DNA of 64,000 nucleotides from Nannocystis sp. (GCF_016714285.1 NZ_JADJNN010000008.1:132669-196668); one strand, 5' to 3'; numbered from the stretch's first letter, positions 1 through 62,094 are shown. Numbers and translations: made by a program. Notes: generated by a model not told the origin, from the letters alone.

Positions 1-356
1 GCGTCGGAGGTGTTCATATAGTCCCACCAGCGGCCATAGAGCGCCTCGCGGGTGAGGCCGGGTTTGGCGGCCGTCTCGACGATCTGGTCCATCACGCGGG
101 TGAAGGTGAAGCCGGCGAGCAGGGCCTCATCGGTGACGGCGAGCGAGCGGCGCGGGTCGAGGTCGAAGGTGTCGCCGCAGACCTGCGCGGAGGGATCGGG
201 GGTGGTGAAATCTGAGGGGCCGGCGGGGACCGGTTTGGGGACCGCGATCGGATCTGTCCTTGCGGACATGTCCTCGGGGTCACACGCGGACAGGGCCAGG
301 ATCGCGGGGGCGCACGAGGCTAAAATTAAGGTGAGCCGGAGCGGAGCTGCGTACAC
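1..356 (-). CDS. Partial N-terminal fragment of a hypothetical lipoprotein; it runs off the window start
   Basis: The minus-strand frame reads V/MYAAPLRLTLILASCAPAILALSAC(lipobox)DPEDMSARTDPIAVPKPVPAGPSDFTTPDPSAQVCGDTFDLDPRRSLAVTDEALLAGFTFTRVMDQIVETAAKPGLTREALYGRWWDYMNTSD. Composition is protein-like, with a signal peptide and lipobox. The GTG start near 354-356 is uncertain; an internal ATG lies near 267-269. Confidence 0.4.
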   Translation of the reverse strand, partial: MYAAPLRLTLILASCAPAILALSACDPEDMSARTDPIAVPKPVPAGPSDFTTPDPSAQVCGDTFDLDPRRSLAVTDEALLAGFTFTRVMDQIVETAAKPGLTREALYGRWWDYMNTSD

Positions 357-483
357 GGGGCCAGGATAACCAAGCGCCTAAGTCTCCGCCAGCGCGGGGA
401 TTGCCGGGATCGGGGCGCGCCCTGGAGGCAGCGCGGAGGGACGTGGCCGCGGGGGCGATGCCGTCGCTGTGCGAGCCCGTGGG

Positions 484-1539
484 TCAGCGGGGCTGCTTGC
501 GGGCGGTGCGGGCGGCGAGGCGGGTCTTGACGCGCTCGGCCTTGGCCTCCTCGGCGGCGAGGAGCTCGGCCTCGTCGCTGGCCTGGGCGGCCTCGAACTC
601 GTTCCACAGGCCGGTGAGGAGCTGGTCCTGATCGGTCCACGGGGTGCCGTCGAGGCCCTTGTCGGGCTCGACGCCCAGCATCTTGAGGGTGACGGCCTGG
701 TCCGGGTTGAGGCCGACTTTCTGGGCCCGGCCGCGGAAGAAGCGCTTCATCGTCGCGGCGGTCTCCTCGTACTTGCTGGGGCACAGCTTGCCGCCGCTGA
801 CGGCGCGGTGGACGGTCTCCCACGTGGCCTTGGTGGTGTAGTTGAAGGGCTTGCCCTGCTCGTCCTTGCAGACGATGTTGCCGCCGGCCTTGCGGATCAT
901 GCGGGCGGCGGCGCGGCGGTAGACGAGCACGTCGACGATCGCGTCGCAGAGGATGCGGGGGTCGGCGGTCTTGTCCCAGACCAGGGTGAAGTAGTTGGAG
1001 TTCATCCCGAACAGGCCGTAGGTCTGCCACACCGATGGGTCGGCGGCGTGGGGGTTGCCCTCGTAGGTCTTCTGCATCTTGCGCCACGCGGAGTAGCTGC
1101 CCTCGAGGTCGGGCGAGAGGCGGTGCACGAGGCCCTGCTGCAGGCTCGACTCGCGGGCGGCGACCAGCTGGAGCAGCTTGTGGAACTCGTCGCTGGCCTT
1201 GAGCCGCTTGGCGACGTGGGCGATGACGCGGTGGGTCCGGACCTGCTCGGTGCGGGTGAGCTTGGGGCGCTTGTCGTTGACGCCGTGGACGCAGGCGCAA
1301 GGCAGCAGGCCCTGCACGGCCGCGCGGTCGTCGATGAAGCTGCCTTCAGGATCGCGGTCGACGCGGACCGGCATCAGAGGCGCCGGAGCGCTGATGGCGT
1401 CGTCGAGGTTGTCGGCGGCGATGTGCCGACCGGGCAGCGTCCCATCCGCTTCATCCATCTTCGCACTGGCTCCATCGTCGAAGACATCGGTCAAGAAGCC
1501 GATGCAGTAGGCCAGGGCTGTCAGTTGCACCAATCGCAT
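484..1539 (-). CDS. Hypothetical secreted protein of 351 aa, unknown function
   Basis: The ORF has a hydrophobic N-terminus (MRLVQLTALAYCIGFLTDVF) and a non-biased composition. A GGGAGAG ribosome-binding site sits 7 nt upstream of the ATG at 1539. I did not recognise a family. Confidence 0.6.
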   Translation of the reverse strand: MRLVQLTALAYCIGFLTDVFDDGASAKMDEADGTLPGRHIAADNLDDAISAPAPLMPVRVDRDPEGSFIDDRAAVQGLLPCACVHGVNDKRPKLTRTEQVRTHRVIAHVAKRLKASDEFHKLLQLVAARESSLQQGLVHRLSPDLEGSYSAWRKMQKTYEGNPHAADPSVWQTYGLFGMNSNYFTLVWDKTADPRILCDAIVDVLVYRRAAARMIRKAGGNIVCKDEQGKPFNYTTKATWETVHRAVSGGKLCPSKYEETAATMKRFFRGRAQKVGLNPDQAVTLKMLGVEPDKGLDGTPWTDQDQLLTGLWNEFEAAQASDEAELLAAEEAKAERVKTRLAARTARKQPR

Positions 1540-2110
1540 TCCGGCACTCTCCCTTCGGCGGCAACCGCCGACGTGTTCCAGGACACCAAGGAGAAACCGA
1601 TCCAGTGTCTCCAGTCCATAGCCACGCGAAATTTTTTGCCGATCGCGGAGGGTTTAGATGCGCCCGCAGGGGCCCAAAGACGCGCTTATGCGGGACATTC
1701 CCGCCCGGCTCGCGGGCCCTGTTTCACTGTCAGATTGTGTGTGCGCGCGGGCTCGATCGAATGTGCCAGCCACAAGTTGTGGACCGCGATCGCGGCGCGC
1801 TCGCAAGATGTAGTGGTGTCACTGCCAGCCCCCGCGCGAGCTCGAGAGTCGCGCGCACTGGCAGGGTCGATGTCGCTTGCGGCGTCGTCGCGCGGCGCGA
1901 AACGGCCGCGTGCACGCGTGCTCCGGCGCAGATCAAGCGGGGCGGGTGATCGACGCGGTGGGTCGGCGCGCCTGATCGCTACGCGCGGCGCGCTCGCGGC
2001 GCTCGGGCCGGCGCCGCGGCGCGCCGCAGATGTCCTTGTCGACATGTCCCAAGCGCCAGGCTGTGCGCGGCGTGGACGGTGAGCGAGGCTGGCCTTCGGG
2101 ACAGCTTTGA

Positions 2111-3109
2111 TCACAGCTCGCGGAGGCCGCGGCGGCGCAGCAGCCACAGGAACAGCGGGGCGCCGAGCAGGCTGGTGAGCACGCCCGGCGGGAGGACGAC
2201 GCTGGTGAAGGCGCGGGCGAGGGTGTCGACGAGGAGGACGAGCACGGCGCCGAGCAGGGCGGCGCGCGGCAGCAAGTGGCGGTGACCGGGGCCGCCCTGC
2301 ATGCGCGCGAGGTGGGGGACCAGCAGGCCGACGAAGGCGATGACGCCGCTGATCGCCGTGGCGGCGCCGACCAGGAGGCCGACGGCGAGCACGGTGCGGC
2401 GGCGCAGGCGGACGAGGTCGACGCCGAGCGAGGCGGCGACGTCGTGGCCGAGGTGGAGGGTGTCGAGGTCGCGGCGCAGCGAGGCGGCGAGCGCGAGGCC
2501 GAGGACGCAGGGGGGCAGGGCCCAGGCGAGGTGGATCCAGGTGCGGCCCTCGAAGCTGCCGAGGCTCCACTGCATCACGCGCAGGCCGAGGTCCCAGCGC
2601 TGGGCGCCGAGGGCGAGGCAGAGGGTCGCGATCGCGGCGCAGAGGGTGCCGAGGGCGAAGCCGGAGAGCAGGAGGGTGGCGAGGCTGTGGTTGGCGCGGT
2701 GGAGGGCGAGGAGGATGACGAGGACCAGGCCCGCGCCGGCGGCGGCGAGCAGCGGGGTGACCCACAGGCCGCTGGATTCGGCGCCGAGGAGGAAGCCGAT
2801 GACGGCGGCGAGCATGGCCCCGGCGCTGACGCCGAGGACGCCGGGGTCGGCGAGCGGGTTGCGGAACAGGCCCTGGGTGAGGGCGCCGGCGCAGGCCAGG
2901 GCGGCGCCGACGAGCGCGGCGAGCAGGGCCCGGGGCAGGCGCAGCTGCCAGACGATCGCGTCGCGCAGCGGTGGGAGCGGGTCGCCGAGGCCGAGGTGGG
3001 CGAGCAGGCTGCGCAGGGCCTCGTCGAGGCCGACCTCGCCGGGACCTGTCCCGAGGGCCAGGAGCAGGGCGGCGGGGAGGAGCAGGGCGGTGAGGTGGCG
3101 CAGGCGCAT
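2111..3109 (-). CDS. btuC: ABC transporter permease of the FecCD/BtuC family
   Basis: The motif FRNPLADPGVLGVSAGA and the polytopic hydrophobic profile are typical of the FecCD family. It lies downstream of a BtuF-like binding protein in a riboswitch-controlled B12 locus. Confidence 0.9.
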   Translation of the reverse strand: MRLRHLTALLLPAALLLALGTGPGEVGLDEALRSLLAHLGLGDPLPPLRDAIVWQLRLPRALLAALVGAALACAGALTQGLFRNPLADPGVLGVSAGAMLAAVIGFLLGAESSGLWVTPLLAAAGAGLVLVILLALHRANHSLATLLLSGFALGTLCAAIATLCLALGAQRWDLGLRVMQWSLGSFEGRTWIHLAWALPPCVLGLALAASLRRDLDTLHLGHDVAASLGVDLVRLRRRTVLAVGLLVGAATAISGVIAFVGLLVPHLARMQGGPGHRHLLPRAALLGAVLVLLVDTLARAFTSVVLPPGVLTSLLGAPLFLWLLRRRGLREL

Positions 3110-3181
3110 GGGACTGGCGGGCGAGGACGCGGGCGGGCGGAGTCGTGGGCCAGCGAGCGGGCCGAGGCGGAGGTCAGCGGG

Positions 3182-4087
3182 TCAGCGGGCGAGGACGCGG
3201 GCCTGCAGGAGCTCGGCGCTGACGATCATACCCTCGCCGGTGCCGCCGAGGTCGCGGGCGGGGATGGCGATGATGCGGCCGTCGCGGGCGGCGCGGGTGG
3301 CCGCGATGCCGGGGCCGGCGGCGAAGCGGGCCTCGGCGGCGGGGCAGGCGGGGTCGTCGGCCTCGGCGGCGGGGCAGGCGATGACGATGACCTCGGGGTC
3401 CCAGGCGACGAGGCGCTCCATGGCCACAGGGACATGTCCCGAGAGACCTGCGCTTTCGGGCAGGTTGACGAGGCCCGCGGCGGCGGCGACGTCGGCGAAG
3501 GTCGTGGCGCCGGCGCTGGTGTGGCCGTCGCCCCAGGCGACCGCGGTGGGCGCGGGGTCGGGCCTGTGGGCGGCGAGGGCGGCGAGGCGGCGGTCGAGGT
3601 TGGCGATGCTGGCCTCGGCGGCGGGGCTGGCCTCGACGGCGGCGGCGAGCAGGCGGAGCTGACGGCGGTAGTCGGCGAAGCCGGTGAAGCTGTCGAGCTC
3701 GAGCAGGCGGACGCGGTGGGCGGTGAGGAGGGCCTTGATCTCGGGGGCGCTGAAGCTGGCGATGACGACCAGGTCGGGGTCGCGGGCGAGCAGGCCCTCG
3801 CTGGTGACGGCGAGGCGCGGGAGCTCGGGCGGCCACTGGCCGGCGACGCGGCTGTAGCGGGGGTCATCGGCCATGCTGCTGACGCCGACGACGCGGGCGC
3901 GCGCGGCCGGGCCGAGGCTCCACAGGATCTCGTCGCTCAGCACGGTCTGCGAGACGACGCGGTGGGCCGGGCCGGTGCTGGGGGTCGGGGTCGGGGCGCA
4001 GGCGGCGAGCAGCAGCGCGGCGAGGAGCGGGGCGCGACGATGCTGTCCTGAGGGACAGGTGATCTGGCCGGAGGGACAGGTGGTCAT
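3182..4087 (-). CDS. btuF: Periplasmic cobalamin/siderophore-type ABC substrate-binding lipoprotein, BtuF-like (Peripla_BP_2)
   Basis: The ORF track extends to 4555, but that upstream portion overlaps the neighbouring gene and is compositionally junk. The real start is the ATG at 4085-4087, giving MTTCPSGQITCPSGQHRRAPLLAALLLAACAP with lipobox LAAC, overlapping the upstream gene's stop as ATGA. The sequence RVVSQTVLSDEILWSLG...VVGVS resembles BtuF/FhuD-class binding proteins. Confidence 0.85.
   Translation of the reverse strand: MTTCPSGQITCPSGQHRRAPLLAALLLAACAPTPTPSTGPAHRVVSQTVLSDEILWSLGPAARARVVGVSSMADDPRYSRVAGQWPPELPRLAVTSEGLLARDPDLVVIASFSAPEIKALLTAHRVRLLELDSFTGFADYRRQLRLLAAAVEASPAAEASIANLDRRLAALAAHRPDPAPTAVAWGDGHTSAGATTFADVAAAAGLVNLPESAGLSGHVPVAMERLVAWDPEVIVIACPAAEADDPACPAAEARFAAGPGIAATRAARDGRIIAIPARDLGGTGEGMIVSAELLQARVLAR
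4044..4082. repeat. CTGTCC-tgag-GGACAG palindrome plus two copies of GAGGGACAGGTG with a 21-bp period, at the lipoprotein A / btuF junction
   Basis: The structure can be read directly. It encodes TCPSGQI TCPSGQH at the BtuF N-terminus. Confidence 0.9.
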
Positions 4088-5304
4088 GGGAGCGGGGTGG
4101 CGGCGTAGGGGGCCAGGCCGGTGGCGATCGGTGTGCCGGCGAAGCGCGGGGTCGGCGGGTCGGCGCGCAGGTCCCACGCGCGCATGCCGGCGGCGGTGGG
4201 GGTGACGTCGCCGAACCATAGCGTGTCGCCGACGATCTCGAGGGTGGGGCCGACCGACTGGAGGCCGCGGGCGACCTCGACGATCGGCGCGTCGTCGTCG
4301 AGGCTGGCGCGCAGGAGCAGCACCTGGGACAGGTCGGCGCTGTAGCTGGCGATGTAGGCGTGGCGGTGCTCGGCGTCGAGGTCGAAGGCCTGGGGCAGCT
4401 GGTAGTCGGCGAGGCCGATCGCGGCGAGGCGGGCGGGGTCGACGGCCCAGGTGGAGGTGCGCTGGGCCAGGTCGACGCGCTCGAGGCCGGTGGTGAGGAT
4501 CAGGACGCTGTGGCCGGTGGGGTCGGCGGGGTCGGGGCGCCACTGCCGGGCCCACAGGCCGAGCAGGGGCATGGCTTGCACGCCGGGGCTCGCGGGATCG
4601 AGGTCGTGGAGGCGGCGGCTCGGGAGGTCGATCGGGGCGAGGTGGTCGCGGGTGTCGGTGGGCGCGAGCAGCTGGTTCTGGTCGAGGCGCTGGACGCTGA
4701 CGAAGAGCGTGTCGCCGCAGCGGATCGCCAGGTGGGCCTCGGGGTTGCCGTCGGCGTCGGCGAGCGGTGCGAGGTCGATGTGGCCGGCGAGGCTCGGGCG
4801 CGCGGGGTCGGCGATGTCGACGATCTGCACGCGCGGGGCGCCGAACATGGTGACGTGGGCGAGGTCGCCGACGACGGTGACCGCGTGCGGGTTGCTGCTC
4901 TGGACGCCGGGGACGGCGAGGCTCTGCTGGCCGAGCAGGGCGAGGCTGTCGGGCGCGAGCAGGTCGAGGGCGTCGAAGGTGTAGCGGTGGAGGACGATCA
5001 GGCGGCCGTCGCTGAAGACAGGGAGCGAGTCGGTGGTGGCGAGGGCGAGGTCCTTGTGGAGCTCGCCGGTGGCGAGGTCGAGGATGCTGAGCGCGCCGGT
5101 GCTGAAGTCGGTGGTGGTGATGGCGAGGCGGGTCGGGTCGCTGAGCTCGCCGACGCAGGCCTCGTCGAGCTCGGGTGGGCCCGCGAGCGGGGGGGCGGCC
5201 CCGGTGTCGCTGGTGTCGCTGGCGGCGGAGCTGGCGTCGTCGTCGGGTGGGGCGCAGGCCAACACGAGGCTGGCCGCGAGGACAGGTGCGAGGGGGCGGC
5301 GCAT
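4084..5304 (-). CDS. Lipoprotein paralog A of the B12 locus, 407 aa, possibly a beta-propeller and possibly BtuG-like
   Basis: The real start is MRRPLAPVLAASLVLACAPP with lipobox LVLAC, at the ATG complement 5302-5304. It shares blocks with the next gene, for example HSVLILTTGLERVDLAQRTSTWAVDPARLAAIGL against HTILVLTSGIERVDLAHGTSSWAVDPAVLAAAGI. Repeated Asp-rich loop and strand periodicity suggests a propeller. Confidence 0.7.
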   Translation of the reverse strand: MRRPLAPVLAASLVLACAPPDDDASSAASDTSDTGAAPPLAGPPELDEACVGELSDPTRLAITTTDFSTGALSILDLATGELHKDLALATTDSLPVFSDGRLIVLHRYTFDALDLLAPDSLALLGQQSLAVPGVQSSNPHAVTVVGDLAHVTMFGAPRVQIVDIADPARPSLAGHIDLAPLADADGNPEAHLAIRCGDTLFVSVQRLDQNQLLAPTDTRDHLAPIDLPSRRLHDLDPASPGVQAMPLLGLWARQWRPDPADPTGHSVLILTTGLERVDLAQRTSTWAVDPARLAAIGLADYQLPQAFDLDAEHRHAYIASYSADLSQVLLLRASLDDDAPIVEVARGLQSVGPTLEIVGDTLWFGDVTPTAAGMRAWDLRADPPTPRFAGTPIATGLAPYAATPLP

Positions 5305-5306
5305 GG

Positions 5307-6590
5307 TCAGGGGATCGCGAGCAGGAGGTAGGGGTCGCCGGGGGTGGCGATCGGGTCGGCCTCGACCGGGGGATCCTCGCTGAGATCGAAGCTGCGCAGG
5401 CGGGGGTTGTCGGTGGCGGCGTCGCCGACCCACAGGAGCTCGCCGACGCGCTCGATCGCCTTGTCGCGGGCGGTGAGGCCGGGGATCAGCTTGTGCGCGC
5501 TCGGGGCTTGCTCGCCCAGGCGGACGCGGAAGACGGCGGCGGCCGGGTAGTCGCCGTCGGTGGCGAGGAGGTCGATGCTGGTGGCGTCGGCGGCGACGCT
5601 GAAGCCGATCGGATCGAAGCCGTCGATGCCGGCGGCGGCGAGCACCGCGGGGTCGACCGCCCAGCTGGATGTCCCATGGGCCAGGTCGACGCGCTCGATG
5701 CCGGAGGTGAGGACGAGGATGGTGTGGCCGCTCGGGTCAGCGGGGTCGAGGCGGGCCTGCTTGGGCCAGGGGCCGAGGAGGGCGATCGCCTGCTCACCGG
5801 GGGTGCTCGGGTCGACGTCGATCGGCTCGCCGGTGCCGAGGTTCATGGCGACGAGGTAGCTGAGGTCGACGGGGTTGAAGTTGACGAGGCGCTGGACGCC
5901 GACGAACAGGGCCTCGCCGCAGGTGAAGGCGAGGCCGGGCTCGGGGCTGCCGTCGCGGTCGGCGAAGTCGATCAGGCTGAGGGCGTCGACCTTGGCCTCG
6001 GCGGCCGGGAGGTCGAGGTCGTAGACGGGGAGCTGCGCGCTGGCGAAGGCGGTGAGGTGGGCGCGGCCGTCGGGGCCGAAGGCGAGGGCCTGCGGGTTGG
6101 GGTCGGCGACGCCGTCGACGCTGACCATGAGCGTGGGCTTGGCGGCCCAGGTGTCGCCGTCGAGGATGTCGAGGCTGTTGAAGCCGAAGCGGCCGATGAT
6201 GACCAGCTTGCCGTCGCCCCACGCGAGCGCGGAGTCGGCGGGGGCGGGCGCGATGTCGGGGGTGAGCTTGTTGCTGGCGAGGTCGAGGACGTGGACGCTG
6301 GCGGGGTCCATGAGGTTGTTGGTGAGGATCGCCAGGCGGGTCGCGGTGGTCGGGCCGAGCGCGCAGGGGGCGTCGAGCTCGATGACGGGGGCCGGGTCGC
6401 CGGTGGTGGCGGTGTCGGTCGTGGCGTCGGTGCTCGTCGGTGCGGTGGTGGGCGCGCTGGTCTGGCTGGTTTCACCTGTGCTTTCGGACATGTCTGTTGT
6501 GCCAGCTTCGGCGCTGTCGCCGGTGCCGTGACCGGTGTTGGTGTGGCAGGCGGAGAGGAGGAGGAGGACGGGGAGGGTGGGGCGGAGCAT
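5307..6590 (-). CDS. Lipoprotein paralog B of the B12 locus, 427 aa, possibly a beta-propeller and possibly BtuG-like
   Basis: It starts MLRPTLPVLLLLSACHTNTG with lipobox LLSAC, followed by a Thr/Ser-rich linker. It is a paralog of 4084..5304. Its ATG lies 3 nt after the btuB stop, in the arrangement TGAtccATG. Confidence 0.7.
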   Translation of the reverse strand: MLRPTLPVLLLLSACHTNTGHGTGDSAEAGTTDMSESTGETSQTSAPTTAPTSTDATTDTATTGDPAPVIELDAPCALGPTTATRLAILTNNLMDPASVHVLDLASNKLTPDIAPAPADSALAWGDGKLVIIGRFGFNSLDILDGDTWAAKPTLMVSVDGVADPNPQALAFGPDGRAHLTAFASAQLPVYDLDLPAAEAKVDALSLIDFADRDGSPEPGLAFTCGEALFVGVQRLVNFNPVDLSYLVAMNLGTGEPIDVDPSTPGEQAIALLGPWPKQARLDPADPSGHTILVLTSGIERVDLAHGTSSWAVDPAVLAAAGIDGFDPIGFSVAADATSIDLLATDGDYPAAAVFRVRLGEQAPSAHKLIPGLTARDKAIERVGELLWVGDAATDNPRLRSFDLSEDPPVEADPIATPGDPYLLLAIP

Positions 6591-6593
6591 GGA

Positions 6594-8840
6594 TCAGGTC
6601 TCGTGGCGGGCCGGGGCGTCGAGCTCGACGCGGAGGGTGGTCCACAGGCTGGTGCCGGGGAGCGGGTAGAAGAAGAAGTCGGAGACGGGGACGGTGATCG
6701 CGGGGGCGCCGGCGATCGGCGGGCGCCAGGTGGTGGTGCGGAGGTTGAAGAGGTTGCGCACCTCGGCGGCGAGGTGGACGCGGCGGGCGAGGTGCAGCTC
6801 GACGGCGAGGCCGTGGAGGGCGCGGCTCGGGACCTCGTAGCGGCCGCTCGGGTCGAGGAAGGTGCGGGCCGCGTAGTCGAAGCTGTAGACCAGGCGCGGC
6901 TCGAGATCGGTGCGCCTGGCCTTGAAGACATGTCCGAAAGAACCTTGCGCGAACAGCTCGTGGCGCGGGCGACCGGGCAGGGGCTGGCCGCGCTGGGAGG
7001 GGTCGTCGCCGAGGTTGACGGGGGCGAGCAGGGTGTAGTTGGCGGACAGGCGGATGTCGCCGCGGAGCAGGCGGAGCGCGGCGCTGGTCTCGAAGCCGGA
7101 GACGCGGGCGCGGGCGACGTTCACGGGGCGCAGGCTGGGACCGGCCTGCTGCCACTGGATCAGGCGGTCGCTCCACGTGACGAAGCCAGCGGCGTGGGCG
7201 TAGAGGGATGTGCGGGCGCGGGTGAGGTCGAGGATGAAGCCGCCGTCGAGGCTGCTGCCGCGCTCGGGTCGCAGGCCCTCGTTGCCGACGATGTAGCCGC
7301 GGTCGCCGAACAGCTCGAGCAGGCTCGGGGGACGGAAGTAGCGGCCGCCGGCGAGGCGGAGGGAGAGGCCGTGGACGAGGCCGAGGCGGGCGGCGAGGCG
7401 CGGGCTGGCGCCGAGCTCGAGGTGGTCGGCGCCCTGGTCGTTCTGCTCGCCGCTGCCGGCGGGGACGGCGAAGCGGCTGCGGAGGACGTCGAGGCGGACG
7501 ATCGGCTGGAGGTGGAGACGATCGCCGGCGAGGTGTTGATCGAGCTGGAGGCCGAGGCCGAGGTTGACGCGCTGGCGGTTGCTGTCGCCCTGGGGCGGCG
7601 TGAGCAGGCGCTGGTCGACGCGGCTCCACTCCTGGCGGGCGTCGGCCATGGCGAGCAGCTGGGCGCCGCGCCACAGATCGAGGGTGAGGCGCGGCGAGAG
7701 GTAGAGGTCGAGGTTCCGGGTGCGCTGGTCGTCGACCCCGAGGCCGACCTCGCCGAGCGGGTCGCGGTAGCGGGTGCGCTCGACGGCGAAGCCGGCGACC
7801 AGGTCGACGTGGCCGGGGCGACCGCCGTCGTCGCCGAGCTCGCGGCGCACCCGGGCGACGCTGCGGGCGACCAGAGTGTCCAGCCTGGTGGCACGCGCCT
7901 GCTGGCCGGTGGCGAGGCCGGGGATGCCCTGGTGCTTGTTGAGCAGCAGCTCCTGGACGCTGTAGCGCCACGCGCCGGCGCGGCCGTGAACGGCGAGCTG
8001 GGCGAGCAGGCGGTCGTAGTCGTTGTTCTGGCGCCGCTCGTTGTGGTCGTCGCGGGGGTCTTGCAGGGTCTCGCCGAGGTTGTGGAAGTTGAAGTCCCCG
8101 GTGGCGCCGGCGTGGCCGATGCGGAGGTCGAGGCAGGGGCCGCGGCGGCGCGGGGCGAGCGGGAGGGAGGTGCTGGCGCGGGCCTCGCTAGCGCCGAAGG
8201 AGCCGAGGCCGAGGACGGCGCCGAAGCGGCGGCGGGTCGGGTCGCAGCGCAGGTCGCTGCCGAGATCGAGGGCGCCGCCGATCGCCGCGCCGCCGTACGC
8301 GACCGGGACCAGGCCGCGGTGGATCGTGACGCGGCCGAGGCTGTCGAGCGGGAGGTCGCCGAGGTTGACGACCCCGCCGCTGCCGCCGACCGGGACGCCG
8401 TCGAGGAAGACCGACACCTGCTGGGCTGAGGAGCCGCGCAGCGAGAGGGCGGAGAACTGGCCGAGGCCGCCGAGTGAGCGCACGGTGGCGCCGGCGCTGC
8501 GACCGAGCAGCTCGGGCAGGCCGTCGGCCGGGCGGGCGCCGGTGGGGTTGGCGAGCTCGATGCTGGTGGCGAAGCCGGGGCTGGCGGCGTCCTGCCGGCG
8601 CTGGGCGTCGAGGCCGTCGCCGCGGCCGTGGGCGACGACGGTGCGGTAGGGCGGGCTGGTCTTTGGGACAGGCTGGGTTGGGCTGGTCTTTGGGACAGCG
8701 GGGCTGGTCTTTGGGACAGCGGGGCTGGTCTTTGGGACAGGTGGCGCGAGGGCGCGGAGCTCGCGGGTGGTCAGCAGGGCGGCCGCGCAGGCGCACGCAG
8801 GCGCGAGGCGCACGCAGGCGACACGTATCGCGAGCCGCAC
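6594..8840 (-). CDS. btuB: TonB-dependent outer-membrane receptor, BtuB-like, controlled by a cobalamin riboswitch
   Basis: The plug domain reads SIELANPTGARPADGLPELLGRSAGATVRSLGGLGQFSALSLRGSSAQQVSVFLDGVPVGG...TIHRGLVPVAYGGAAIGGALDLGS and is followed by a long beta-barrel. The N-terminal extension carries the repeat APPVPKTSPAVPKTSPAVPKTSPTQPVPKTSP. The start is GTG. The C-terminus is atypical, ending ...LWTTLRVELDAPARHET. Confidence 0.9.
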   Translation of the reverse strand: MRLAIRVACVRLAPACACAAALLTTRELRALAPPVPKTSPAVPKTSPAVPKTSPTQPVPKTSPPYRTVVAHGRGDGLDAQRRQDAASPGFATSIELANPTGARPADGLPELLGRSAGATVRSLGGLGQFSALSLRGSSAQQVSVFLDGVPVGGSGGVVNLGDLPLDSLGRVTIHRGLVPVAYGGAAIGGALDLGSDLRCDPTRRRFGAVLGLGSFGASEARASTSLPLAPRRRGPCLDLRIGHAGATGDFNFHNLGETLQDPRDDHNERRQNNDYDRLLAQLAVHGRAGAWRYSVQELLLNKHQGIPGLATGQQARATRLDTLVARSVARVRRELGDDGGRPGHVDLVAGFAVERTRYRDPLGEVGLGVDDQRTRNLDLYLSPRLTLDLWRGAQLLAMADARQEWSRVDQRLLTPPQGDSNRQRVNLGLGLQLDQHLAGDRLHLQPIVRLDVLRSRFAVPAGSGEQNDQGADHLELGASPRLAARLGLVHGLSLRLAGGRYFRPPSLLELFGDRGYIVGNEGLRPERGSSLDGGFILDLTRARTSLYAHAAGFVTWSDRLIQWQQAGPSLRPVNVARARVSGFETSAALRLLRGDIRLSANYTLLAPVNLGDDPSQRGQPLPGRPRHELFAQGSFGHVFKARRTDLEPRLVYSFDYAARTFLDPSGRYEVPSRALHGLAVELHLARRVHLAAEVRNLFNLRTTTWRPPIAGAPAITVPVSDFFFYPLPGTSLWTTLRVELDAPARHET
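8652..8740. repeat. In-frame tandem array inside btuB: four copies of GGGCTGGTCTTTGGGACAG, three with a 21-bp period
   Basis: The array can be read directly. It encodes PKTSPAV repeats. Confidence 0.9.
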
Positions 8841-9019
8841 GTAGGCGACGCGAATGAAGCTGCGGCGCCCGTGGGCGCGCGAGGGCGTGGGGATCTTGGG
8901 GACGATGGCGAGTGAACTCCCGTCTCACCGAGGTCGTCCGCGCCGGTGGGCGCAGGGACCTGCCGCCTTGTCAGGGCGGGGGAGCGCAGGGCAGGTCTCC
9001 TGGCTAAAGGGTCATCCTC

Positions 9020-9160
9020 GATCGACGCCTTCCCACGGTCCTGCGGGTGCAGGAGCTCGCAGTGGCTGCGTGTCGATCTCGTCGCCTCTCACAGTGGCGG
9101 GAGCCGCGTCGGTGTTGCACCGACTTCCCTCTTTCGCGTCCTGGGCCCTGGGCCCGGGAC
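9020..9160 (-). promoter_or_regulatory. Cobalamin (AdoCbl) riboswitch in the 5' leader of btuB
   Basis: The minus strand reads gaaagAGGGAAGTCGGTGCAACACCGACGCGGCTCCCGCCACTGTGAGAGGCGACGAGATCGACACGCAGCCACTGCGAGCTCCTGCACCCGCAGGACCGTGGGAAGGCG. This contains the conserved AGGGAA...GGTG.AA...CCCGCCACTGT element, a second GCCACTG B12 box and GGGAAGGC. It ends about 180 nt upstream of the btuB start. Confidence 0.75.
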
Positions 9161-9209
9161 GACCGTGCGCTCGAGTCTGTTTGTCAGGGAACGGCGCACT
9201 TGTCGCTCG

Positions 9210-44298: not shown

Positions 44299-44299
44299 T

Positions 44300-51414: not shown

Positions 51415-51472
51415 GGTGGAAAGGACAGGGTGGAAAGGACAGGGTGGAAAGGACAGGCCGGCGATCACGTGA
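51415..51472. repeat. Three copies of the 14-bp tandem repeat GGTGGAAAGGACAG abutting a start codon, followed by the perfect palindrome GATCACGTGATC that contains the glk stop
   Basis: Both elements can be read directly. Confidence 0.85.
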
Positions 51473-54463: not shown

Positions 54464-54465
54464 GC

Positions 54466-54650
54466 GACTCGCCGGCCAGCGCCGCGGCGATCGCCGCGAC
54501 CAGAGCGGAGCGACTCGCCGGCCAGCGCCGCGGCGATCGCCGCGACGAGAGCGGAGCGACTCGCCGGCCAGCGCCGCGGCGATCGCTGTGGCCAGGCGCC
54601 GGGCCTGAGCTACTCGCCGGCCAGCTCCGAGGCGATCGCCGCGGCCACGC
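54466..54650. repeat. Tandem ~46-bp direct repeats: three copies plus the glgB 3' end as a fourth. Each carries the palindrome GCGGCGATCGCCGC.
   Basis: The unit gactcgccggccagcgccgcggcgatcgccgcgaccagagcggagc occurs three times in the convergent intergenic region. A fourth, degenerate copy is the glgB C-terminal coding end. Confidence 0.85.
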
Positions 54651-57063
54651 GGGCGACCCGCGCGGCGGCCTCGGCGGCCTCACGTGCCGCTTCAGCCGTT
54701 GCCTCCGCGGCCTCGGCCTCGCGCGCCAGATCTTCGGCCGCGGCCGCCGTCTCGCGGGCGATTCGCTCGGCCCGGTGGCGCTCGGCCGCGACGCGCAGCT
54801 CGCCCGCCTCCGGCCCGCGCAGCAGCAGGCAAGTCAGCGGGGGCAGGGTGATGCGCAGCGAGAAGGGCCGATCGTGGGCTGGCTCGGGCTCGGCCTCGAA
54901 GCTGTCTGCCAGCGACACGATCGCCGTCTGTTCATCGCCGCTGTAGGCCGCCGCGTCGCTGCGATCGATCAGGGTCCAGCGCCCCTCGGCGGGCACGCCG
55001 ATGCGCTGCTCCGTCCACGTCACCGGGGTGAAGTTCAGGGCCACGAGCATCACCGGTCCGCGGCTCGGCAGGCGCATGTACACCGCCAGGCTGCGCTGGC
55101 GATCGTCGACCACCATCCACTCGAAGCCCGCGGGATCGTGGTCGAGCTCGTGCAGCGCCGGGTCGGCGCGGTAGAGCTGGGCCACGCGACGCAGCCAGCG
55201 CAGCGCGCCCGCGTGCGCCGGCGATCGGAGCAGCTCCCAGTCGAGCTCGCGCTCGTGGCTCCACTCGCGCACCTGGCCGAACTCGCCGCCCATGAACAGC
55301 AGCTTGCGGCCCGGCGTGCTGAACATGTACCCGAGCAGCAGGCGCAGGCCGGCGAACTTCGCGGGCGTGTCCCCGTACATCTTGCGGATCAGCGAGCCCT
55401 TGCCGTGCACGACCTCGTCGTGCGACAGCGGCAGCATGTAGCGCTCGTTGTACGCGTACCACATGCGAAAGGTCAGCTCGTTGTGGTGCTGCGCGCGCGT
55501 GACGGGGTCGCGGCCGAGGTAGCGCAGGCTGTCGTGCATCCAGCCCATGTCCCACTTGAGATCGAAGCCGAGGCCGCCGCGCTCGACCGGGCCGGTGACC
55601 AGCGGCCACGCCGTCGACTCCTCCGCGATCGTGATCACGCCCGGGTGGCGCGCGTGGATCGTCTGGTTCAGCGCCCGCAGGAAGGCGACCGCCTCGAGGT
55701 TCTCGCGCCCGCCGTGCGCGTTCGGCTGCCACTGGCCGGGCTGACGCGAGTAGTCGAGGTAGAGCATCGAGGCCACCGCGTCGACCCGGATCGCGTCGAC
55801 GTGATAGCGCTCGATCCACATGGACGCGGAGCTGAGCAGGAAGGCCCGCACCTCGTGGCGCCCGTGGTTGAAGATCAGCGTGTTCCAGTCCGGGTGCACG
55901 CCGCGGCTCGGGTCGCGGTGCTCGTAGAGATAGGTGCCGTCGAAGCGGTGCAGCCCGTGCGCGTCGCCCGGGAAGTGGCCCGGCACCCAGTCGAGGATCA
56001 CCCCGATCTCGGCGCGGTGCAGCTCGTCGATCAGGTACATCAGCGCCTGCGGCCCGCCGTAGCGGGCGCTCGGGGCGAAGTAGCCGCTGGTCTGGTAGCC
56101 CCACGATCCGTAGAAGGGGTGCTCGGTGAGCGGCATGAACTCGACGTGGGTGAAGCCCAGCGCCCGCACGTGCGCGACCAGCTTCGCCGCGATCTCGCGG
56201 TAGCCGAGCCACGCGCCCTCGGGCCCGCGCAGCCACGAGCCGAGGTGCAGCTCGTAGACCGAGATCGGCGCGTGTCGACCTTGCCGCGCGGCCCGCTCGC
56301 GCAGCCACGCGTCGTCGCGCCAGGCGTACTCGAGGTCGGCGATCCGCGAGGCCGTGTGCGGCGGCAGCTCCGTGGCCAGCGCGCAGGGGTCGGCCTTGTC
56401 GAGCACCTCGCCGCGCATCCCGATCACACGGTACTTGTAGAGCATCCCGACCGCCGCCTCGGCGACGCGCCCGATCCACAGCCCGCCGCCGCCGCGCGCG
56501 AGCGGGTGGCGGAAGGGGTCCCAGTCGTTCCACTCGCCGATCACGCTGACGTGGCGCGCGTTCGGGGCCCACACCGCGAACTGCACGCCGCCCTCGGCGA
56601 GCAGCTGCGCGCCGAGCTTTTCATACAACCGCAGGTGCGTGCCCTCGGCGAGGTAGTGCAGGTCGTCGGCGCTGATGCTGGGGTCTTGGGTCGGCCGCGC
56701 GAGGTAAAGCCGCGGATCTGCGGGCGCCTCGGGCACCTCGGGTACCTCGTCGGGCAGATACAAGATGGCGTCCGCGCTGGCCGCGAGCACCTCGGCGGGG
56801 CTGTCCTTCGGGACAGGTACATCGTCGCCGAGGTACACGATCGCCTCGGTCTGCACGGCCACCTCATCGCCCGAGACGTCGACTGTCACCGCGGCCTCGG
56901 CCTCCGCCTCGGCCTGCTCCGGCCTGGCCTTCGGGACAGGTGCATCGTCGGGCAGGTACAGGATCGAGTCGGCGTTGCTGGCCAGCACCGCCGCTGCCCT
57001 GGGCTTCGCCCGCGCCGTGCCCTGCTTCGTCTCCCTCGATGGTTGCCGCGGACGCTTGCTCAT
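54610..57063 (-). CDS. glgB: 1,4-alpha-glucan branching enzyme with a ~130-aa N-terminal extension
   Basis: The GH13 branching-enzyme core reads HVEFMPLTEHPFYGSWGYQ...ILDWVPGHF. The N-terminal extension carries the repeats ILYLPDDAPVPK...VYLGDDVPVPK...ILYLPDEVPEVPE. Confidence 0.9.
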   Translation of the reverse strand: MSKRPRQPSRETKQGTARAKPRAAAVLASNADSILYLPDDAPVPKARPEQAEAEAEAAVTVDVSGDEVAVQTEAIVYLGDDVPVPKDSPAEVLAASADAILYLPDEVPEVPEAPADPRLYLARPTQDPSISADDLHYLAEGTHLRLYEKLGAQLLAEGGVQFAVWAPNARHVSVIGEWNDWDPFRHPLARGGGGLWIGRVAEAAVGMLYKYRVIGMRGEVLDKADPCALATELPPHTASRIADLEYAWRDDAWLRERAARQGRHAPISVYELHLGSWLRGPEGAWLGYREIAAKLVAHVRALGFTHVEFMPLTEHPFYGSWGYQTSGYFAPSARYGGPQALMYLIDELHRAEIGVILDWVPGHFPGDAHGLHRFDGTYLYEHRDPSRGVHPDWNTLIFNHGRHEVRAFLLSSASMWIERYHVDAIRVDAVASMLYLDYSRQPGQWQPNAHGGRENLEAVAFLRALNQTIHARHPGVITIAEESTAWPLVTGPVERGGLGFDLKWDMGWMHDSLRYLGRDPVTRAQHHNELTFRMWYAYNERYMLPLSHDEVVHGKGSLIRKMYGDTPAKFAGLRLLLGYMFSTPGRKLLFMGGEFGQVREWSHERELDWELLRSPAHAGALRWLRRVAQLYRADPALHELDHDPAGFEWMVVDDRQRSLAVYMRLPSRGPVMLVALNFTPVTWTEQRIGVPAEGRWTLIDRSDAAAYSGDEQTAIVSLADSFEAEPEPAHDRPFSLRITLPPLTCLLLRGPEAGELRVAAERHRAERIARETAAAAEDLAREAEAAEATAEAAREAAEAAARVARVAAAIASELAGE

Positions 57064-59418: not shown

Positions 59419-61047
59419 ATGAACGCCTCGCCCTCACCCGCGCGCCGGATCGTCGGCGTCACCGTGCCGCTGTTCTCGCTGCGCAGCGCCAGCTCGTGGG
59501 GCATCGGCGAGATCGGCGACCTGCCGGCGCTCGCCCGCCTGCTCGCGCCCGCCGGCGTCGGCCTGATCCAGCTGCTCCCGATCAACGAGATCGCCGGCGG
59601 CAACACCTCGCCCTACGGCGCCCTCTCGGCCTTCGGCATCGACCCGATGTACATCAGCCTCACCGCCGTCGATGACCTGCGCGCGCTCGCCAACGTCGAG
59701 GCGCTCGGCCACGACGGCGCGCGCCGCCTCGACGCCCTGCGCGCCGCCCCCGGCGTCGACTACGAGGCCGTCCGCGAGCTCAAGCGCCACGCCCTGATCG
59801 CCGGCCTCAAGCGCTTTCATCACCACGAGCTGCGGGCCCACACCCCGACCCCGCGGGCCCGCAGCTTCCACGCCTTCGTCGCCGCCCACCGCGGCTGGCT
59901 CGACGCCTACGCCCTCTACCGCGCGATCAAGGACGACCAGCACGGCAAGCCGTGGTGGGAGTGGCCGGCCCCGCTGCGCGAGCGCGAGGCCGCGGCGCTG
60001 CGCCAGGAGGAGGCCCGCCTCGGCGACGCGGTCCTCTACTTCAAGTACGTCCAGTGGCTCGCGCACAGCCAGTGGGCCGACGCCCGCGCCGCGCTGCGCC
60101 ACCAGGGCGTCGAGATCATGGGCGACCTCCCCTTCATGGTCGACCGCGACTCCGCCGACGTCTGGGCCGAGCGCCGCGAGTTTCGCCTCGACATGTCGGT
60201 CGGCTGCCCCGCCGATCAGTTCGACGAGGACGGCCAGGACTGGGGCCTGCCGCCCTACTACTGGGGCGTCATGGCCGGCAACGACTTCGCCTGGCTGCGC
60301 CGCCGCGCCCGCTACAGCGGCGAGCTCTACGACCGCTTCCGCGTCGACCACCTGGTCGGCTTCTTCCGCACCGCGATGCGCCCCTACGACGCCCGCCGCG
60401 ACGCCAAGGGCAAGCTGGTCCCCGCCCGCTTCGACCCGCCCGACGAGCACAGCCAGCGCCTCCACGGCGAGCGCGTGGTCGGGGCCATGATCGCCGCGGC
60501 CGCGGAGACCGGCGCCCGCCTGGTCGCCGAGGACCTCGGCTCCGTCCCCGGGTACGTCGGCCCCGCGCTCGCCAAGCTCGGCGCCCCCGGCTACCGCGTG
60601 CTCATCTGGGAGAAGGACGGCGAGGTCTTCCGCGACCCCGCCAGCTACCCCGCCCGCAGCGTCGCCTGCTTCGGCACCCACGACACCGCCCCGGTCGCCG
60701 CGTGGTGGACCCACCTCTCGGAGCCCGAGCGCGCCGCGGCGCTCCAGCTACCTGTCCTTCGCGACATGTCCCCGGCGCCAGGCAAGCGCTTCACCGTCGA
60801 CCTGCACGCCGCGCTCTTGCGCCTGATCTGCGGCGCCGGCTCCGAGCTGGTGCTGCTGCTCCTGCAGGACCTGCTCGGCACCCGCGACCGCATCAACGTC
60901 CCCGGCACCGTCAAGCCGAGCAACTGGACCTACCGCCTGCCCAAGCCGATCGAGGCGATGGCCAGCGACCGCAGCGTCCGTGCTGCCCTGACCCGCCTCG
61001 GCGCCGCCATCGACGCCACCCACCGCGACCGCCCGCGCCCACACTAG
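59419..61047 (+). CDS. malQ: 4-alpha-glucanotransferase (amylomaltase)
   Basis: VTVPLFSLRSASSWGIGEIGDLP...LPINE matches the GH77 N-terminus. Confidence 0.9.
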   Translation: MNASPSPARRIVGVTVPLFSLRSASSWGIGEIGDLPALARLLAPAGVGLIQLLPINEIAGGNTSPYGALSAFGIDPMYISLTAVDDLRALANVEALGHDGARRLDALRAAPGVDYEAVRELKRHALIAGLKRFHHHELRAHTPTPRARSFHAFVAAHRGWLDAYALYRAIKDDQHGKPWWEWPAPLREREAAALRQEEARLGDAVLYFKYVQWLAHSQWADARAALRHQGVEIMGDLPFMVDRDSADVWAERREFRLDMSVGCPADQFDEDGQDWGLPPYYWGVMAGNDFAWLRRRARYSGELYDRFRVDHLVGFFRTAMRPYDARRDAKGKLVPARFDPPDEHSQRLHGERVVGAMIAAAAETGARLVAEDLGSVPGYVGPALAKLGAPGYRVLIWEKDGEVFRDPASYPARSVACFGTHDTAPVAAWWTHLSEPERAAALQLPVLRDMSPAPGKRFTVDLHAALLRLICGAGSELVLLLLQDLLGTRDRINVPGTVKPSNWTYRLPKPIEAMASDRSVRAALTRLGAAIDATHRDRPRPH

Positions 61048-61084
61048 GCGCGGGGGTCGACTGCGCCGCTCACACGAACGCGAA

Positions 61085-62008
61085 TCAGCCCGGCAGCACG
61101 CAGATGCCGACGTTCTCGTAGCCCGGGAACGCCATCATGTAGAAGGGCACGCACTCCTCCGCGCCGGTGCAGGTCATCTCGTCGAGCGCGCAGAAGGGGG
61201 CGCAACAGCCGTACTCCATCGTCACGCAGCCCTCCTGAGTGGCCGCCTCGGCACAGTTGAGGCCGGGCAAGCAGGCGTTGGCGAAGCTGCACGCATCGCC
61301 GTCCATGCCGCCGTTCTTCGGGTCGGGCGTGAAGCAGAACCCCGGCGGTCCCGACATGCTGTCGCCGTAGCACGCGCCCTGACCGGGGCAGTCCTGCAGC
61401 AAGGGATCGCAGAGCGACAGGCAGATCGGCAGGGTCCCCTCGTTCGCGTCGGCGAAGCACAGGCCGTCGCCATTCGACGTGTTGGGACAGTCCAGATCCT
61501 TCGAGCAGTACTCGACGCAGGCGCCGTTCTTCAGCTCGGCGTCGACGCTGAGGCAGATGAGCCCCTTCGCGCAGTTGTCGATGCCGCTGAACATGTCCAT
61601 TCCCTCGACGGCGCAGTCGTCACCGGCCTGGCCCGTTCCCATCACTGGCACGCACTTGTTGGCGTTCCACGCGTCGCCGGGGATCTTGCCGTAGGACGTA
61701 CACTTCGATCCTTCCGGGCAGTCCTGCTGGATCGCGTCGCACTCGACGTTAACTCCGCCCGTCGGATCGTCCGTGGTCGACGCGTCCGTGGTCGGCGTGT
61801 CCGTGGTCGGCGTGTCCGTGGTCGGTGTGTCGGTGGTGGTGCCCGCGTCGCCTGTGGTGCCCGGATCGCTGGTCGGGGTGCTGGTGGCGCCGTCTGTGGC
61901 GCCGCCGCTCGACCCCTCCGACGCCGTCATCCCCTTGTCGTCGCCGCACGCAGCCGCGACCAGACAGACCAACCCAAACGCGCGTAAATGCCCAATTTTA
62001 TTCATCAT
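61085..62008 (-). CDS. Cys-rich repeat secreted lipoprotein
   Basis: MMNKIGHLRAFGLVCLVAAACGDD has a lipobox, followed by a (TDTPT)n linker and about 40 Cys in repeated CxxGxxC modules. Confidence 0.65.
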   Translation of the reverse strand: MMNKIGHLRAFGLVCLVAAACGDDKGMTASEGSSGGATDGATSTPTSDPGTTGDAGTTTDTPTTDTPTTDTPTTDASTTDDPTGGVNVECDAIQQDCPEGSKCTSYGKIPGDAWNANKCVPVMGTGQAGDDCAVEGMDMFSGIDNCAKGLICLSVDAELKNGACVEYCSKDLDCPNTSNGDGLCFADANEGTLPICLSLCDPLLQDCPGQGACYGDSMSGPPGFCFTPDPKNGGMDGDACSFANACLPGLNCAEAATQEGCVTMEYGCCAPFCALDEMTCTGAEECVPFYMMAFPGYENVGICVLPG

Positions 62009-62094
62009 CCCAATCCCTTTCGCCGGCCCTCAGATCATCACGCCGGACCCCGCCGCGTCAACCCACCTGTCCTTCGTGCCAGCCGCGGCCCCCG

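Follow-up and report, generated by a model that had tools for sequence, protein, structure and literature searches.

An interrupted palindrome, (C)TGTCC-N4-GGACA(G), dispersed in Nannocystis DNA and constrained at the DNA level

A 64-kb stretch of Nannocystis sp. DNA (hereafter the window; 71.9% G+C) carries many copies of a short interrupted palindrome. The element is a single dyad of 14-16 bp, (C)TGTCC-N4-GGACA(G), which is constrained at the DNA level rather than the peptide level and which, among the loci sampled, is restricted to the genus Nannocystis. The original prediction, made from the window alone, had described a dispersed family of DNA-level motifs, and this was confirmed by enrichment in the window and by use of the motif in three frames. 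It had also held that nothing like it is annotated for any known family; consistent with this, no description of the motif or of Nannocystis repeats was found in the searchable literature. Because the dyad is more than 100-fold too frequent, limited to one genus in the loci sampled and kept despite rare codons, the DNA itself appears to be read by something. Judging from sequence, we rate as an even proposition that a dimeric DNA-binding protein recognises the dyad, which would be maintained by selection or by a recognition-dependent drive as for HIP1 (Highly Iterated Palindrome 1) or uptake words, with arrays and hairpins as secondary products.

The unit was defined by alignment of every GGACA and TGTCC occurrence and by a weight matrix on all 163 CTGTCC sites. 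Spacing was counted in a 130-kb sample consisting of the window and three Nannocystis loci picked by orthology and not by motif (L100, L102, and the 21.7-kb N. punicea locus L101). In this sample TGTCC-Nk-GGACA occurred 27 times at k = 4, against about 0.17 expected (an enrichment of about 160-fold), and 0 times at k = 0-3 and 5-11. The spacer had been predicted to vary from 2 to 4; it is always exactly 4, and half-site combinations that include TGGCC were likewise found at no other spacing. Spacer sequence is free, the commonest being CCGG, TCGG, CGAA, TTGC and TTCG. The matrix consensus, A-C-CTGTCC-C-NNN-G-G-[A/C]-C-A-G, confines conservation to about 20 bp, with nothing conserved beyond. 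Throughout, a perfect dyad is (C)TGTCC-N4-GGACA(G) and a hemi-dyad has one degenerate half-site such as TGGCC/GGCCA. TGGCC replaced one half-site in 13 cases and both in none.

The arrangement GGACA-N0-TGTCC was also far above expectation in the same sample (12 vs 0.1). It is the junction where two 14-bp units abut, as seen at 255-283, 47041-47078, 60752-60781 and L100 7428-7480. Abutting dyads yield GGACATGTCC, and GGGACATGTCCC is the unit junction. The three cores first proposed thus correspond to the dyad, the junction of abutting dyads and a half-site with flank; GGGACAGGTG, which had been put forward as the unit, is a half-site with its preferred flank. The count of GGGACAGGTG with at most 1 mismatch in the window nevertheless exceeded expectation as anticipated (18 vs 5.2), and 0 of 100 shuffles reached it. 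The strict dyad gave a sharper contrast: CTGKCC-N4-GGACAG had 15 strand matches at 10 sites, against 0.04 expected, while GACATGTC was found 10 times against 0.89. An unbiased ranking of 8-mers under an order-3 Markov model, in 144 kb of orthology-selected Nannocystis DNA, was topped by TGTCCCAA, ACATGTCC, CCTGTCCC and GACATGTC.

Coding sequences of the window held 6 perfect dyads and 6 hemi-dyads, compared to 0.01 and 0.07 after within-gene synonymous shuffling; none of 200 shuffles reached these counts. Codon use pointed the same way. PVP tripeptides were coded CCT-GTC-CCN in 9 of 21 instances, where CCT is 3.1% of Pro codons (14-fold above its share), and LSQ was coded CTG-TCC-CAR in 6 of 10. 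Inside genes the dyad is read as PVPxxS, LSP/LSQ and CPxGQ, in all three frames, and the ATP-grasp gene at 47093-48856 alone uses several (LSQAPA, PVPEDS, LSPGT). Were the family only a proline-rich linker repeat (PVPxxSP), amplified by slippage and without meaning as DNA, one would understand why several Nannocystis arrays read PVPEASP or PVPKASP, plausible linkers after lipoprotein signal peptides or transmembrane segments, and why array periods are multiples of 3. That reading has next to no chance, given three frames even within one gene, intergenic copies, arrays of 14-bp period, the CCT excess and 6 observed dyads where shuffling expects 0.01. Peptide repeats of the PVPK, TCPxGQ or LSQ form are refuted by the same frame, codon and intergenic data. 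A heme-regulatory Cys-Pro motif in the B12/iron-uptake lipoprotein was rejected as well, the same DNA being read in other frames elsewhere.

Conservation at orthologous sites was followed with two further loci, L105 (94% DNA identity to the window) and L106 (an ATP-grasp locus at about 80% amino-acid identity). The double unit in malQ (60752-60781) shows no indel against orthologues at 70-77% amino-acid identity. Its codons CTA (0.3% of Leu codons), CCT and CCA are identical in all three species; they are 3 of only 4 A/T-ending codons conserved across the gene, and the motif's informative A(-2), T and A(14) are exactly the bases they contribute. Two sites in the ATP-grasp gene behave similarly, CCT being kept at the PVPxDS site and the rare ACA at the LSPGT site in the window, L105 and L106. 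Outside coding sequence, GACATGTCC after the ATP-grasp stop codon is conserved in three taxa. The dyad at the start of a 180-aa gene is conserved in four, being perfect in L100 (TGTCCCCGCGGACATGTCC), recognisable in L106, and present in L105 also.

The taxonomic range was assessed by an array-pattern scan over 185,579 species genomes, from which at least 97 loci were listed. Among these, 23 were Nannocystis loci (N. exedens, N. pusilla, N. punicea, N. radixulma, N. bainbridge, RBIL2 and several metagenome-assembled genomes, MAGs), and the non-Nannocystis matches listed were single hits that look like chance. A perfect dyad was present in 17 loci among the matches listed, 17 of 17 from Nannocystis. 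Orthology-chosen loci gave 8 perfect dyads in the window, 6 in L100, 4 in L102 and 9 in L101, compared to 1 and 0 in the outgroup orthologous loci L103 (a more distant Nannocystaceae MAG) and L104 (a Myxococcales MAG). The copies are therefore not peculiar to the window, as the original prediction had required. Density in Nannocystis loci was 0.1-0.4 per kb, and 0.11 perfect dyads per kb in flanks outside the selected array matches; by extrapolation, not by count, this would amount to the order of 10^3 copies per 11-13 Mb genome. Viral origin or avoidance was rejected, a scan of IMG/VR being at chance level. In one viral contig (IMGVR_UViG_3300020147_000016, L192 10634-10830; 65% G+C), four or five 42-bp iteron-like repeats each contain TGTCCAACTGGACA, a 5-4-5 dyad as in Nannocystis; a phage or plasmid DNA-binding protein that reads the dyad may therefore exist.

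Measured between their centres, the two 6-bp half-sites are separated by 10 bp, one helical turn. This strict spacing, the free spacer, and the tolerance of one weak half-site but not two argue for a dimeric protein on B-DNA and against an RNA or single-stranded DNA hairpin. A sequence-specific Nannocystis protein of this kind would read the dyad on double-stranded DNA; an orphan methyltransferase, a nucleoid or chromosome-organising protein and a DNA-uptake or recombination specificity factor are candidates. High copy number would be kept by selection for the protein-DNA interaction or by a drive that depends on recognition, a logic like that proposed for HIP1 and for the uptake words DUS (DNA uptake sequence) and USS (uptake signal sequence). 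As secondary effects, copies would persist at protein-tolerant places (N-termini, signal-peptide regions, linkers, loops and spacers past stop codons), and abutting units would create GGACATGTCC and could fold into long intergenic hairpins. Replication slippage would convert single units into copy-number-variable tandem arrays, of which only multiples of 3 survive in genes and in which the second half-site would decay to GGCCAG or GACCAG. Stacked hairpins may be co-opted at 3' ends.

In the window, nineteen of 27 sites (17 of 21 clusters), or 70%, lie in coding sequence, which makes up 88% of bases, so that the intergenic per-base excess is only 2.5-fold. Copies in genes occupy N-terminal regions, signal-peptide ends, linkers and variable loops; most intergenic copies lie 10-40 nt past a stop codon or between convergent genes. 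Sites form three patches (0.25-6.9 kb, 23-25.6 kb, 47-62 kb), separated by gaps of 16 and 21.5 kb that hold none. The first of these gaps bears out the predicted gap at 9-22.9 kb, there being no site between 6927 and 23026; the second (25585-47041) is larger and had not been noted. By our estimate from (n+1)(1-g/L)^n, a gap of at least 21.5 kb for 21 clusters in 64 kb has p of about 0.004. The suggested enrichment near secreted and accessory genes was poorly supported, with the B12-uptake operon, glgB, malQ, glk and an ATP-grasp enzyme among the hosts.

Two other proposals are an uptake signal and an operator. The DUS of Neisseria and the USS of Pasteurellaceae are genus- or family-specific asymmetric words, about 1 per kb, that occupy coding DNA in any frame where the protein tolerates them and occur as inverted pairs after genes; a core-genome bias is reported for DUS. 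In a specific form of the recognition-site reading, the dyad would be such an uptake or recombination signal, dyad-bearing DNA being preferred and spreading by biased uptake and homologous replacement. The genus-restricted distribution, the occupation of coding DNA in every frame and where the protein is poorly conserved, and the inverted arrangement after genes would all fit, as would sites made or kept by substitutions without indels (malQ) and a substitution patch at 47041-47078 that makes or removes one GACATGTC between the window and L105. Known uptake sequences, however, are not spaced palindromic dyads; to our knowledge they have no fixed internal spacer and form no tandem arrays. At 0.1-0.4 per kb the dyad is sparser than DUS or USS, the distribution is strongly patchy with the conserved housekeeping block empty, the opposite of the DUS core-genome bias, and Nannocystis competence is not documented in the literature found. 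We regard this form as rather improbable. The prediction of a DUS-like element or a site for an abundant DNA-binding protein is still the best hypothesis.

The second proposal is an operator of a conventional transcription factor that defines a regulon. The FNR box has the same 5-4-5 geometry (FNR/CRP type), and CTGTCC-N4-GGACAG is formally CTGT-N8-ACAG, the form of the gamma-proteobacterial LexA box. Several copies supply an ATG start codon inside GGAC-ATG-TCC, and the start-codon dyad of the 180-aa gene is the one conserved in four taxa. Against these points, the implied copy number runs to thousands per genome, most copies lie deep in open reading frames (ORFs), after stops or in tandem arrays, and the host genes have no common function, making an operator highly improbable. 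Other signals were rejected outright. A sigma-54 or other promoter element misfits in sequence, spacing and orientation, with most copies in ORFs or past stops; a DnaA box (TTGTCCACA has TGTCC in common) mismatches in the flanks; and the only Rfam match in the window is a cobalamin riboswitch, which leaves no known RNA family. Polar words of the Chi or KOPS (FtsK-orienting polar sequence) type, suggested by the resemblance of GGGACAGG to GGGNAGGG, are asymmetric and co-oriented with replication; they are excluded because asymmetric copies of the motif take the direction of the gene strand, which changes inside the window, and because the unit is a dyad.

Array periods were determined with Tandem Repeats Finder and by direct reading. 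Inside genes they are 21 or 27 bp (4043-4082, 8652-8740, 48376-48462) and between genes 14 bp (47041-47074, 51409-51457). One-sided decay plus tandem duplication gives CACCTGTCCC...GGCCAG arrays, the second half-site having decayed to GGCCAG, GACCAG or CGCCAG. The 14-bp array at the 180-aa gene descends from one dyad that overlaps the start codon. The 48376-48462 array is a hypervariable insert of 0 to >80 residues among orthologues, built of units such as DLSPGT, DMSAGTG and HLSQAPA; N. punicea, N. pusilla and Enhygromyxa lack it. In the window it is 6 residues longer than in P0001, the orthologue from a MAG at 99% average nucleotide identity, and 69 bp shorter, all in multiples of 3, than in L105. 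Independent motif segments occupy other loops and frames elsewhere (PVPSDSP and PVPADS in P0025 and P0028; MSPGTG in N. punicea). Solitary units are thus stable, arrays behave as variable-number tandem repeats (VNTRs), and new copies arise at tolerant positions. The suggestion of a slippage hotspot holds for the tandem arrays and not for the rest of the family.

Folding set the decayed arrays apart from the stacked palindromic copies. As RNA, in-gene arrays showed no structure beyond that of shuffles (z -0.4 to +2.1) and the 51409-51457 array was unstructured (z +2.1), whereas stacked palindromic intergenic copies formed strong folds (z -3.3 to -8). Where G replaces T in a half-site, as it often does, the result is a U-C or G-A mismatch and no wobble pair. 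Because of these mismatches and because in-gene arrays do not fold, the element is not an RNA helix. No terminator-like site with a T-run coincided with the motif in 44-63.9 kb; the stacked intergenic hairpins may act as terminators without a U-tract.

The main rival is a miniature mobile or structural hairpin akin to REP (repetitive extragenic palindromic) sequences and BIMEs (bacterial interspersed mosaic elements) or to RPE (Rickettsia palindromic elements). A unit of 14-21 bp would be copied by a RAYT-type (REP-associated tyrosine transposase) or other enzyme or by template switching, in-frame copies in tolerant loops would survive, and intergenic copies would be 3'-end hairpins that terminate transcription or stabilise mRNA. 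Motif segments are indeed insertions relative to distant orthologues, in different loops and frames per lineage, arrays are indel-polymorphic between 94-99% identical genomes, intergenic copies lie mostly past stops or between convergent genes, and stacked copies fold well; REPs too occur past the ends of ORFs and at times within genes (PMC3733652). What is inherited, however, is the stems and not the spacer sequence, while spacer length never varies and the spacer is often self-complementary (CCGG). About half of the non-perfect copies carry a stem-breaking, non-wobble mismatch, and the malQ site arose or persists without an indel, held by rare codons across species. No transposase is linked to the element; a Y1 transposase was not seen in the loci read, although no search for RAYT genes across Nannocystis genomes was made. 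The predicted REP/BIME-like role fails because 70% of sites in the window are coding, there is no GTAG or CGTC tag, and G-T pairs are lacking. We consider the mobile hairpin unlikely, though less so than the uptake signal.

Several observations weigh against the recognition-site reading itself. Its mechanism is drawn from the geometry of the site, densities come from about 400 kb of sampled loci rather than whole genomes (the 8-kb loci from the genome scan having been selected for an array), and conservation with rare codons concerns only about four loci. That many coding copies are insertions would also fit an insertion-type mobile element, and the clustering of well-folding intergenic copies 10-40 nt after stops could reflect a primary RNA function. 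Finally, asymmetric copies are about 80% sense-oriented (11 vs 3), a bias that a symmetric DNA site does not predict. The antisense orientation would put AGGTG(ATC), strongly Shine-Dalgarno-like, into mRNAs, and our interpretation suggests that the bias reflects codon and peptide tolerance together with avoidance of AGGTG in mRNA.

The gene map of the window was our own construction from third-position G+C (GC3), Pfam domains and MAG gene calls, with Rfam for RNAs. The minus-strand genes of 1-9.2 kb are of the B12-type uptake kind. A full-length cobalamin riboswitch (8973-9182, minus strand, 98 bits) lies upstream of a btuB-like TonB-dependent receptor (6594-8840), followed by two paralogous lipoproteins (5307-6590 and 4084-5307), a Peripla_BP_2 lipoprotein of the B12-type periplasmic binding kind (3182-4092) and a FecCD permease (2111-3109). 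Given the riboswitch, 2111-9182 is taken as a B12-uptake operon with btuB-, btuF- and btuC-like genes plus the two lipoproteins. The plus-strand genes of 9.4-22.9 kb form a housekeeping block with rpoZ, accC, pyrG, rpoN, hpf, hprK, rapZ and phosphotransferase system (PTS) genes. Between 23 and 47 kb are a hydrolase, two PD40/peptidase proteins, MMPL, CLC, polA, ABC1, TetR and a CCA enzyme; between 47 and 64 kb are an ATP-grasp_5 "acetate-CoA ligase family" gene, DUF507, NUDIX, glk, hemH, PPTase, glgB, glgX, malQ and secreted proteins. Exact-protein look-ups for 32929-35613, 54610-57063 and P0111 returned no match.

Most sites listed in the original prediction are real and placed correctly to within a few bases (255-291, 3429-3440, 4044-4082, 8652-8740, 22934-23030, 47041-47078, 48035-48052, 48376-48462, 51415-51456, 56807-56824, 56930-56950 and 60752-60778). 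Others needed correction. The site at 4323-4335 is just one half-site, and that at 36098-36120, said to mark a start codon, has no dyad and an ATG that is not the gene start. The palindrome TGTCCCCGGGGACA does occur twice, at 24068-24081 and 47207-47220 (2 and 1 positions away from those given).

In the first cluster, a chain of TGTCC-TTGC-GGACA and TGTCC-TCGG-GGTCA spans 255-283, and the ATG within GGACATGTCC (269-267, minus strand) is the called start of gene 1-269(-). Just downstream of the permease stop (2111) lie two intergenic minus-strand sites, TGTCC-TTGT-CGACA abutting TGTCC-CAAG-CGCCA (2031-2059) and CTGGCC-TTCG-GGACAG (2089-2104). The hemi-dyad CTGTCC-CGAG-GGCCAG in the permease coding sequence (3046-3061, plus strand) is among the few antisense copies. 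The Peripla_BP_2 coding sequence holds TGGCC-ACAG-GGACA abutting TGTCC-CGAG-AGACC (3421-3444), with the 12-bp palindrome GGGACATGTCCC and a GC3 dip; the hairpin ACCTGC-N8-GCAGGT (3446-3465) follows the palindrome at 3429-3440. Two 21-bp units at 4043-4082 (minus strand) encode M-TT-CPSGQ-IT-CPSGQ right after the ATG of this binding lipoprotein, that ATG being part of an ATGA overlap with the stop of the upstream gene. Hemi-dyads occur at the 5' end of the lipoprotein gene 4084-5307(-) (CTGGCC-GCGA-GGACAG, 5270-5285, minus strand) and antisense in the lipoprotein gene 5307-6590(-) (TGTCC-CATG-GGCCAG, 5670-5684, plus strand). CTTTCGGACATGTC and its reverse complement GACATGTCCGAAAG, a pair that was rightly recognised but lies at 6480-6493 and 6927-6940, flank a two-gene boundary. 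A four-unit array with periods of 21, 21 and 27 (CTGTCCCAAAGACCAG..., 8652-8740, minus strand) encodes PVPKTSP four times in the stretch that separates the signal peptide from the plug domain in the receptor under riboswitch control.

Two indels in this region distinguish the window from L001 (contig JADKFZ010000004.1 of MAG GCA_016717175.1), which is 99.3% identical to the first 21 kb. At 4127-4135 a 19-bp indel leads the MAG caller to fuse a lipoprotein and the Peripla_BP_2 gene into a single 713-aa ORF, where the window has two genes with an ATGA stop/start overlap. At 8671-8680 a 10-bp indel in the 21-bp array of the btuB-like gene causes, in the MAG, a frameshift upstream of the plug domain and loss of the signal peptide; the cause would be slipped-strand phase variation or else an error in the MAG assembly.

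The second cluster begins with an intergenic plus-strand array after the ptsI stop (22908), spanning 22934-23041 and consisting of three CTGTCCC/GGTCCC-GTG-CGCCAGGTG units followed by GGGACCTGTCC-TCGC-GGTCAG. The perfect 16-bp palindrome CTGTCCCCGGGGACAG (24067-24082) encodes LSPGT at the signal-peptide end of a PD40/peptidase protein. This protein is one of two adjacent paralogues of about 1000 aa (23995-27087 and 27197-30229), both with PD40 and peptidase-MA-like domains; their N-terminal regions are near-identical (NSRDLKWKTLxTEHF), and the palindrome is in the signal peptide of the first one only.

The third cluster opens between convergent genes with units stacked in 14-bp register at 47041-47078 (hairpin -31 kcal/mol, z -3.9), a position conserved in L105 and L106. 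The ATP-grasp_5 protein, on the minus strand, has CTGTCCCCGGGGACAT (47206-47221; DLSPGT) in a C-terminal loop that is absent in distant orthologues, CTGTCC-CCGA-GGACAG (48033-48048; PVPEDS) in a variable loop, and the array at 48376-48462 (21- and 27-bp periods; LSQAPA/DLSPRT). A 14-bp-period array, CCTGTCCTTTCCAC x3 then CC-ATGTCC-GAAG-CGCCA (51409-51457, minus strand), fills the spacer from the glk stop (51465) to the ATG (51414-51412) of the 180-aa gene. Two minus-strand sites lie in glgB: CTGTCC-CGAA-GGACAG (56801-56816; PVPKDS) in an N-terminal extension, and CTGTCC-CGAA-GGCCAG on the sense strand (56924-56939; PVPKA) in the second copy of a 123-bp repeat. The extension is about 110 aa in the window (56700-57063; compare L100 1-885 and L102 1-790), orthologues being called at 990-992 aa; in the putative translation, repeated ILYLPDDxPVPK segments hold the dyads. 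The malQ site is CTGTCC-TTCG-CGACA abutting TGTCC-CCGG-CGCCAG (LPVLRDMSPAPG, 60752-60781, plus strand). A last member at 62064-62081 (plus strand, divergent intergenic region), CACCTGTCC-TTCG-TGCCAG, had been listed at 62061-62074 and is weak, its second half having 2 mismatches.

Other repeats are present nearby. A tandem repeat (CCCCCATGA) x8 at 62089-62158 directly follows a TGTCC half-site in the divergent region between two secreted-protein genes, and a 46-bp tandem repeat (4.3 copies, 54462-54666) covers the glgB 3' end, which codes for a C-terminal tail rich in Ala and Glu, together with the spacer between glgB and the PPTase gene. A lipoprotein-like protein has TTDTP repeats specified by a 15-bp unit (4.7 copies, 61768-61837); comparable linkers rich in Thr, Asp and Ser come after the lipobox in several of the window's proteins. 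In N. punicea, a 730-bp stretch called intergenic (L101 6103-6833) contains about 12 dyad or hemi-dyad copies, all oriented alike and embedded in larger repeats of 84-194 bp; beside it lies a distinct tandem repeat with a 47-bp unit (about 5 copies, L101 7728-7998).

Words as abundant as HIP1, DUS/USS, Chi and KOPS are rare, and each has pointed to basic chromosome biology; even so, what HIP1 does is disputed even 30 years on. We tentatively suggest, while thinking it somewhat more probably wrong than right, that thousands of TGTCC-N4-GGACA "address" copies serve a genus-specific putative reader in chromosome organisation, self-marking, or uptake and recombination, with selection strong enough to bend codon choice and to mould the loops and N-termini of proteins, as a second, independent HIP1-like system outside cyanobacteria. 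Another case, unrelated to the first and with a bipartite site of the kind that proteins read, would offer a separate and experimentally tractable way to ask why words of this sort exist. If this is true, the bipartite site makes the reader much easier to identify, and the organisms are culturable, with genomes of 11-13 Mb. On the practical side, the arrays are in-frame VNTRs that alter protein length between near-identical strains and can mislead gene callers on start codons and ORF fusions, and the dyad offers a convenient taxonomic marker by which to recognise Nannocystis DNA in metagenomes.

Among known systems, RPE are repeats of 100-150 bp tolerated in-frame in protein genes, and the mycobacterial interspersed repetitive units (MIRU/VNTR) are dispersed, intercistronic tandem arrays with units of 40-100 bp whose copy number varies between close strains. 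Both are copies of whole sequences; in the Nannocystis element, conservation is confined to two half-sites of 5-6 bp and the distance between them. Coding tandem repeats keep one frame and conserve peptide over DNA, and intrinsic terminators combine a G+C-rich stem-loop with a T-run at gene 3' ends; neither pattern was found here, the latter in 44-63.9 kb. REPs are short palindromes, often after ORFs or between convergent genes, single or clustered and occasionally in genes (PMC3733652), all of which the Nannocystis element resembles. REPs are also 20-40 bp long, tagged with GTAG or CGTC, mainly extragenic and rich in G-T stem pairs, whereas the Nannocystis element is 14-16 bp, untagged (the matrix has only A-C 5' of CTGTCC), coding at 19 of 27 sites in the window and has non-wobble mismatches. 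With DUS/USS it shares lineage specificity and occurrence in coding and non-coding DNA in all frames, at the lower density already given.

HIP1 (GCGATCGC) is a lineage-specific short palindrome of cyanobacteria, 15 to 300-fold over-represented, in genes and between them, and conserved at orthologous sites, so that it is maintained by selection and not by chance (PMC5861425). It is non-uniform on the chromosome, and no peptide, RNA or gene-regulatory role has been found (PMC5861425); cognate methyltransferases are known (PMC4390886). The Nannocystis dyad is likewise over-represented by far more than about 15-fold (27 vs 0.17, 15 vs 0.04 and 6 vs 0.01), patchily clustered in the window, and conserved with its rare codons across species both in and between ORFs, at a handful of loci (malQ in 3 species, two ATP-grasp sites in 3 taxa, the 180-aa gene start in 4 and the post-ATP-grasp intergenic site in 3). 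It differs in belonging to another phylum, in being a 5/6-bp dyad with an obligatory free 4-bp spacer rather than a contiguous 8-mer, in tolerating one degenerate half-site, and in concatenating in 14-bp register and forming 21/27-bp in-frame arrays. Because it combines dyad geometry with genus-wide hyper-abundance and constraint at synonymous sites, its closest analogue is HIP1 or a drive of the uptake-sequence type.

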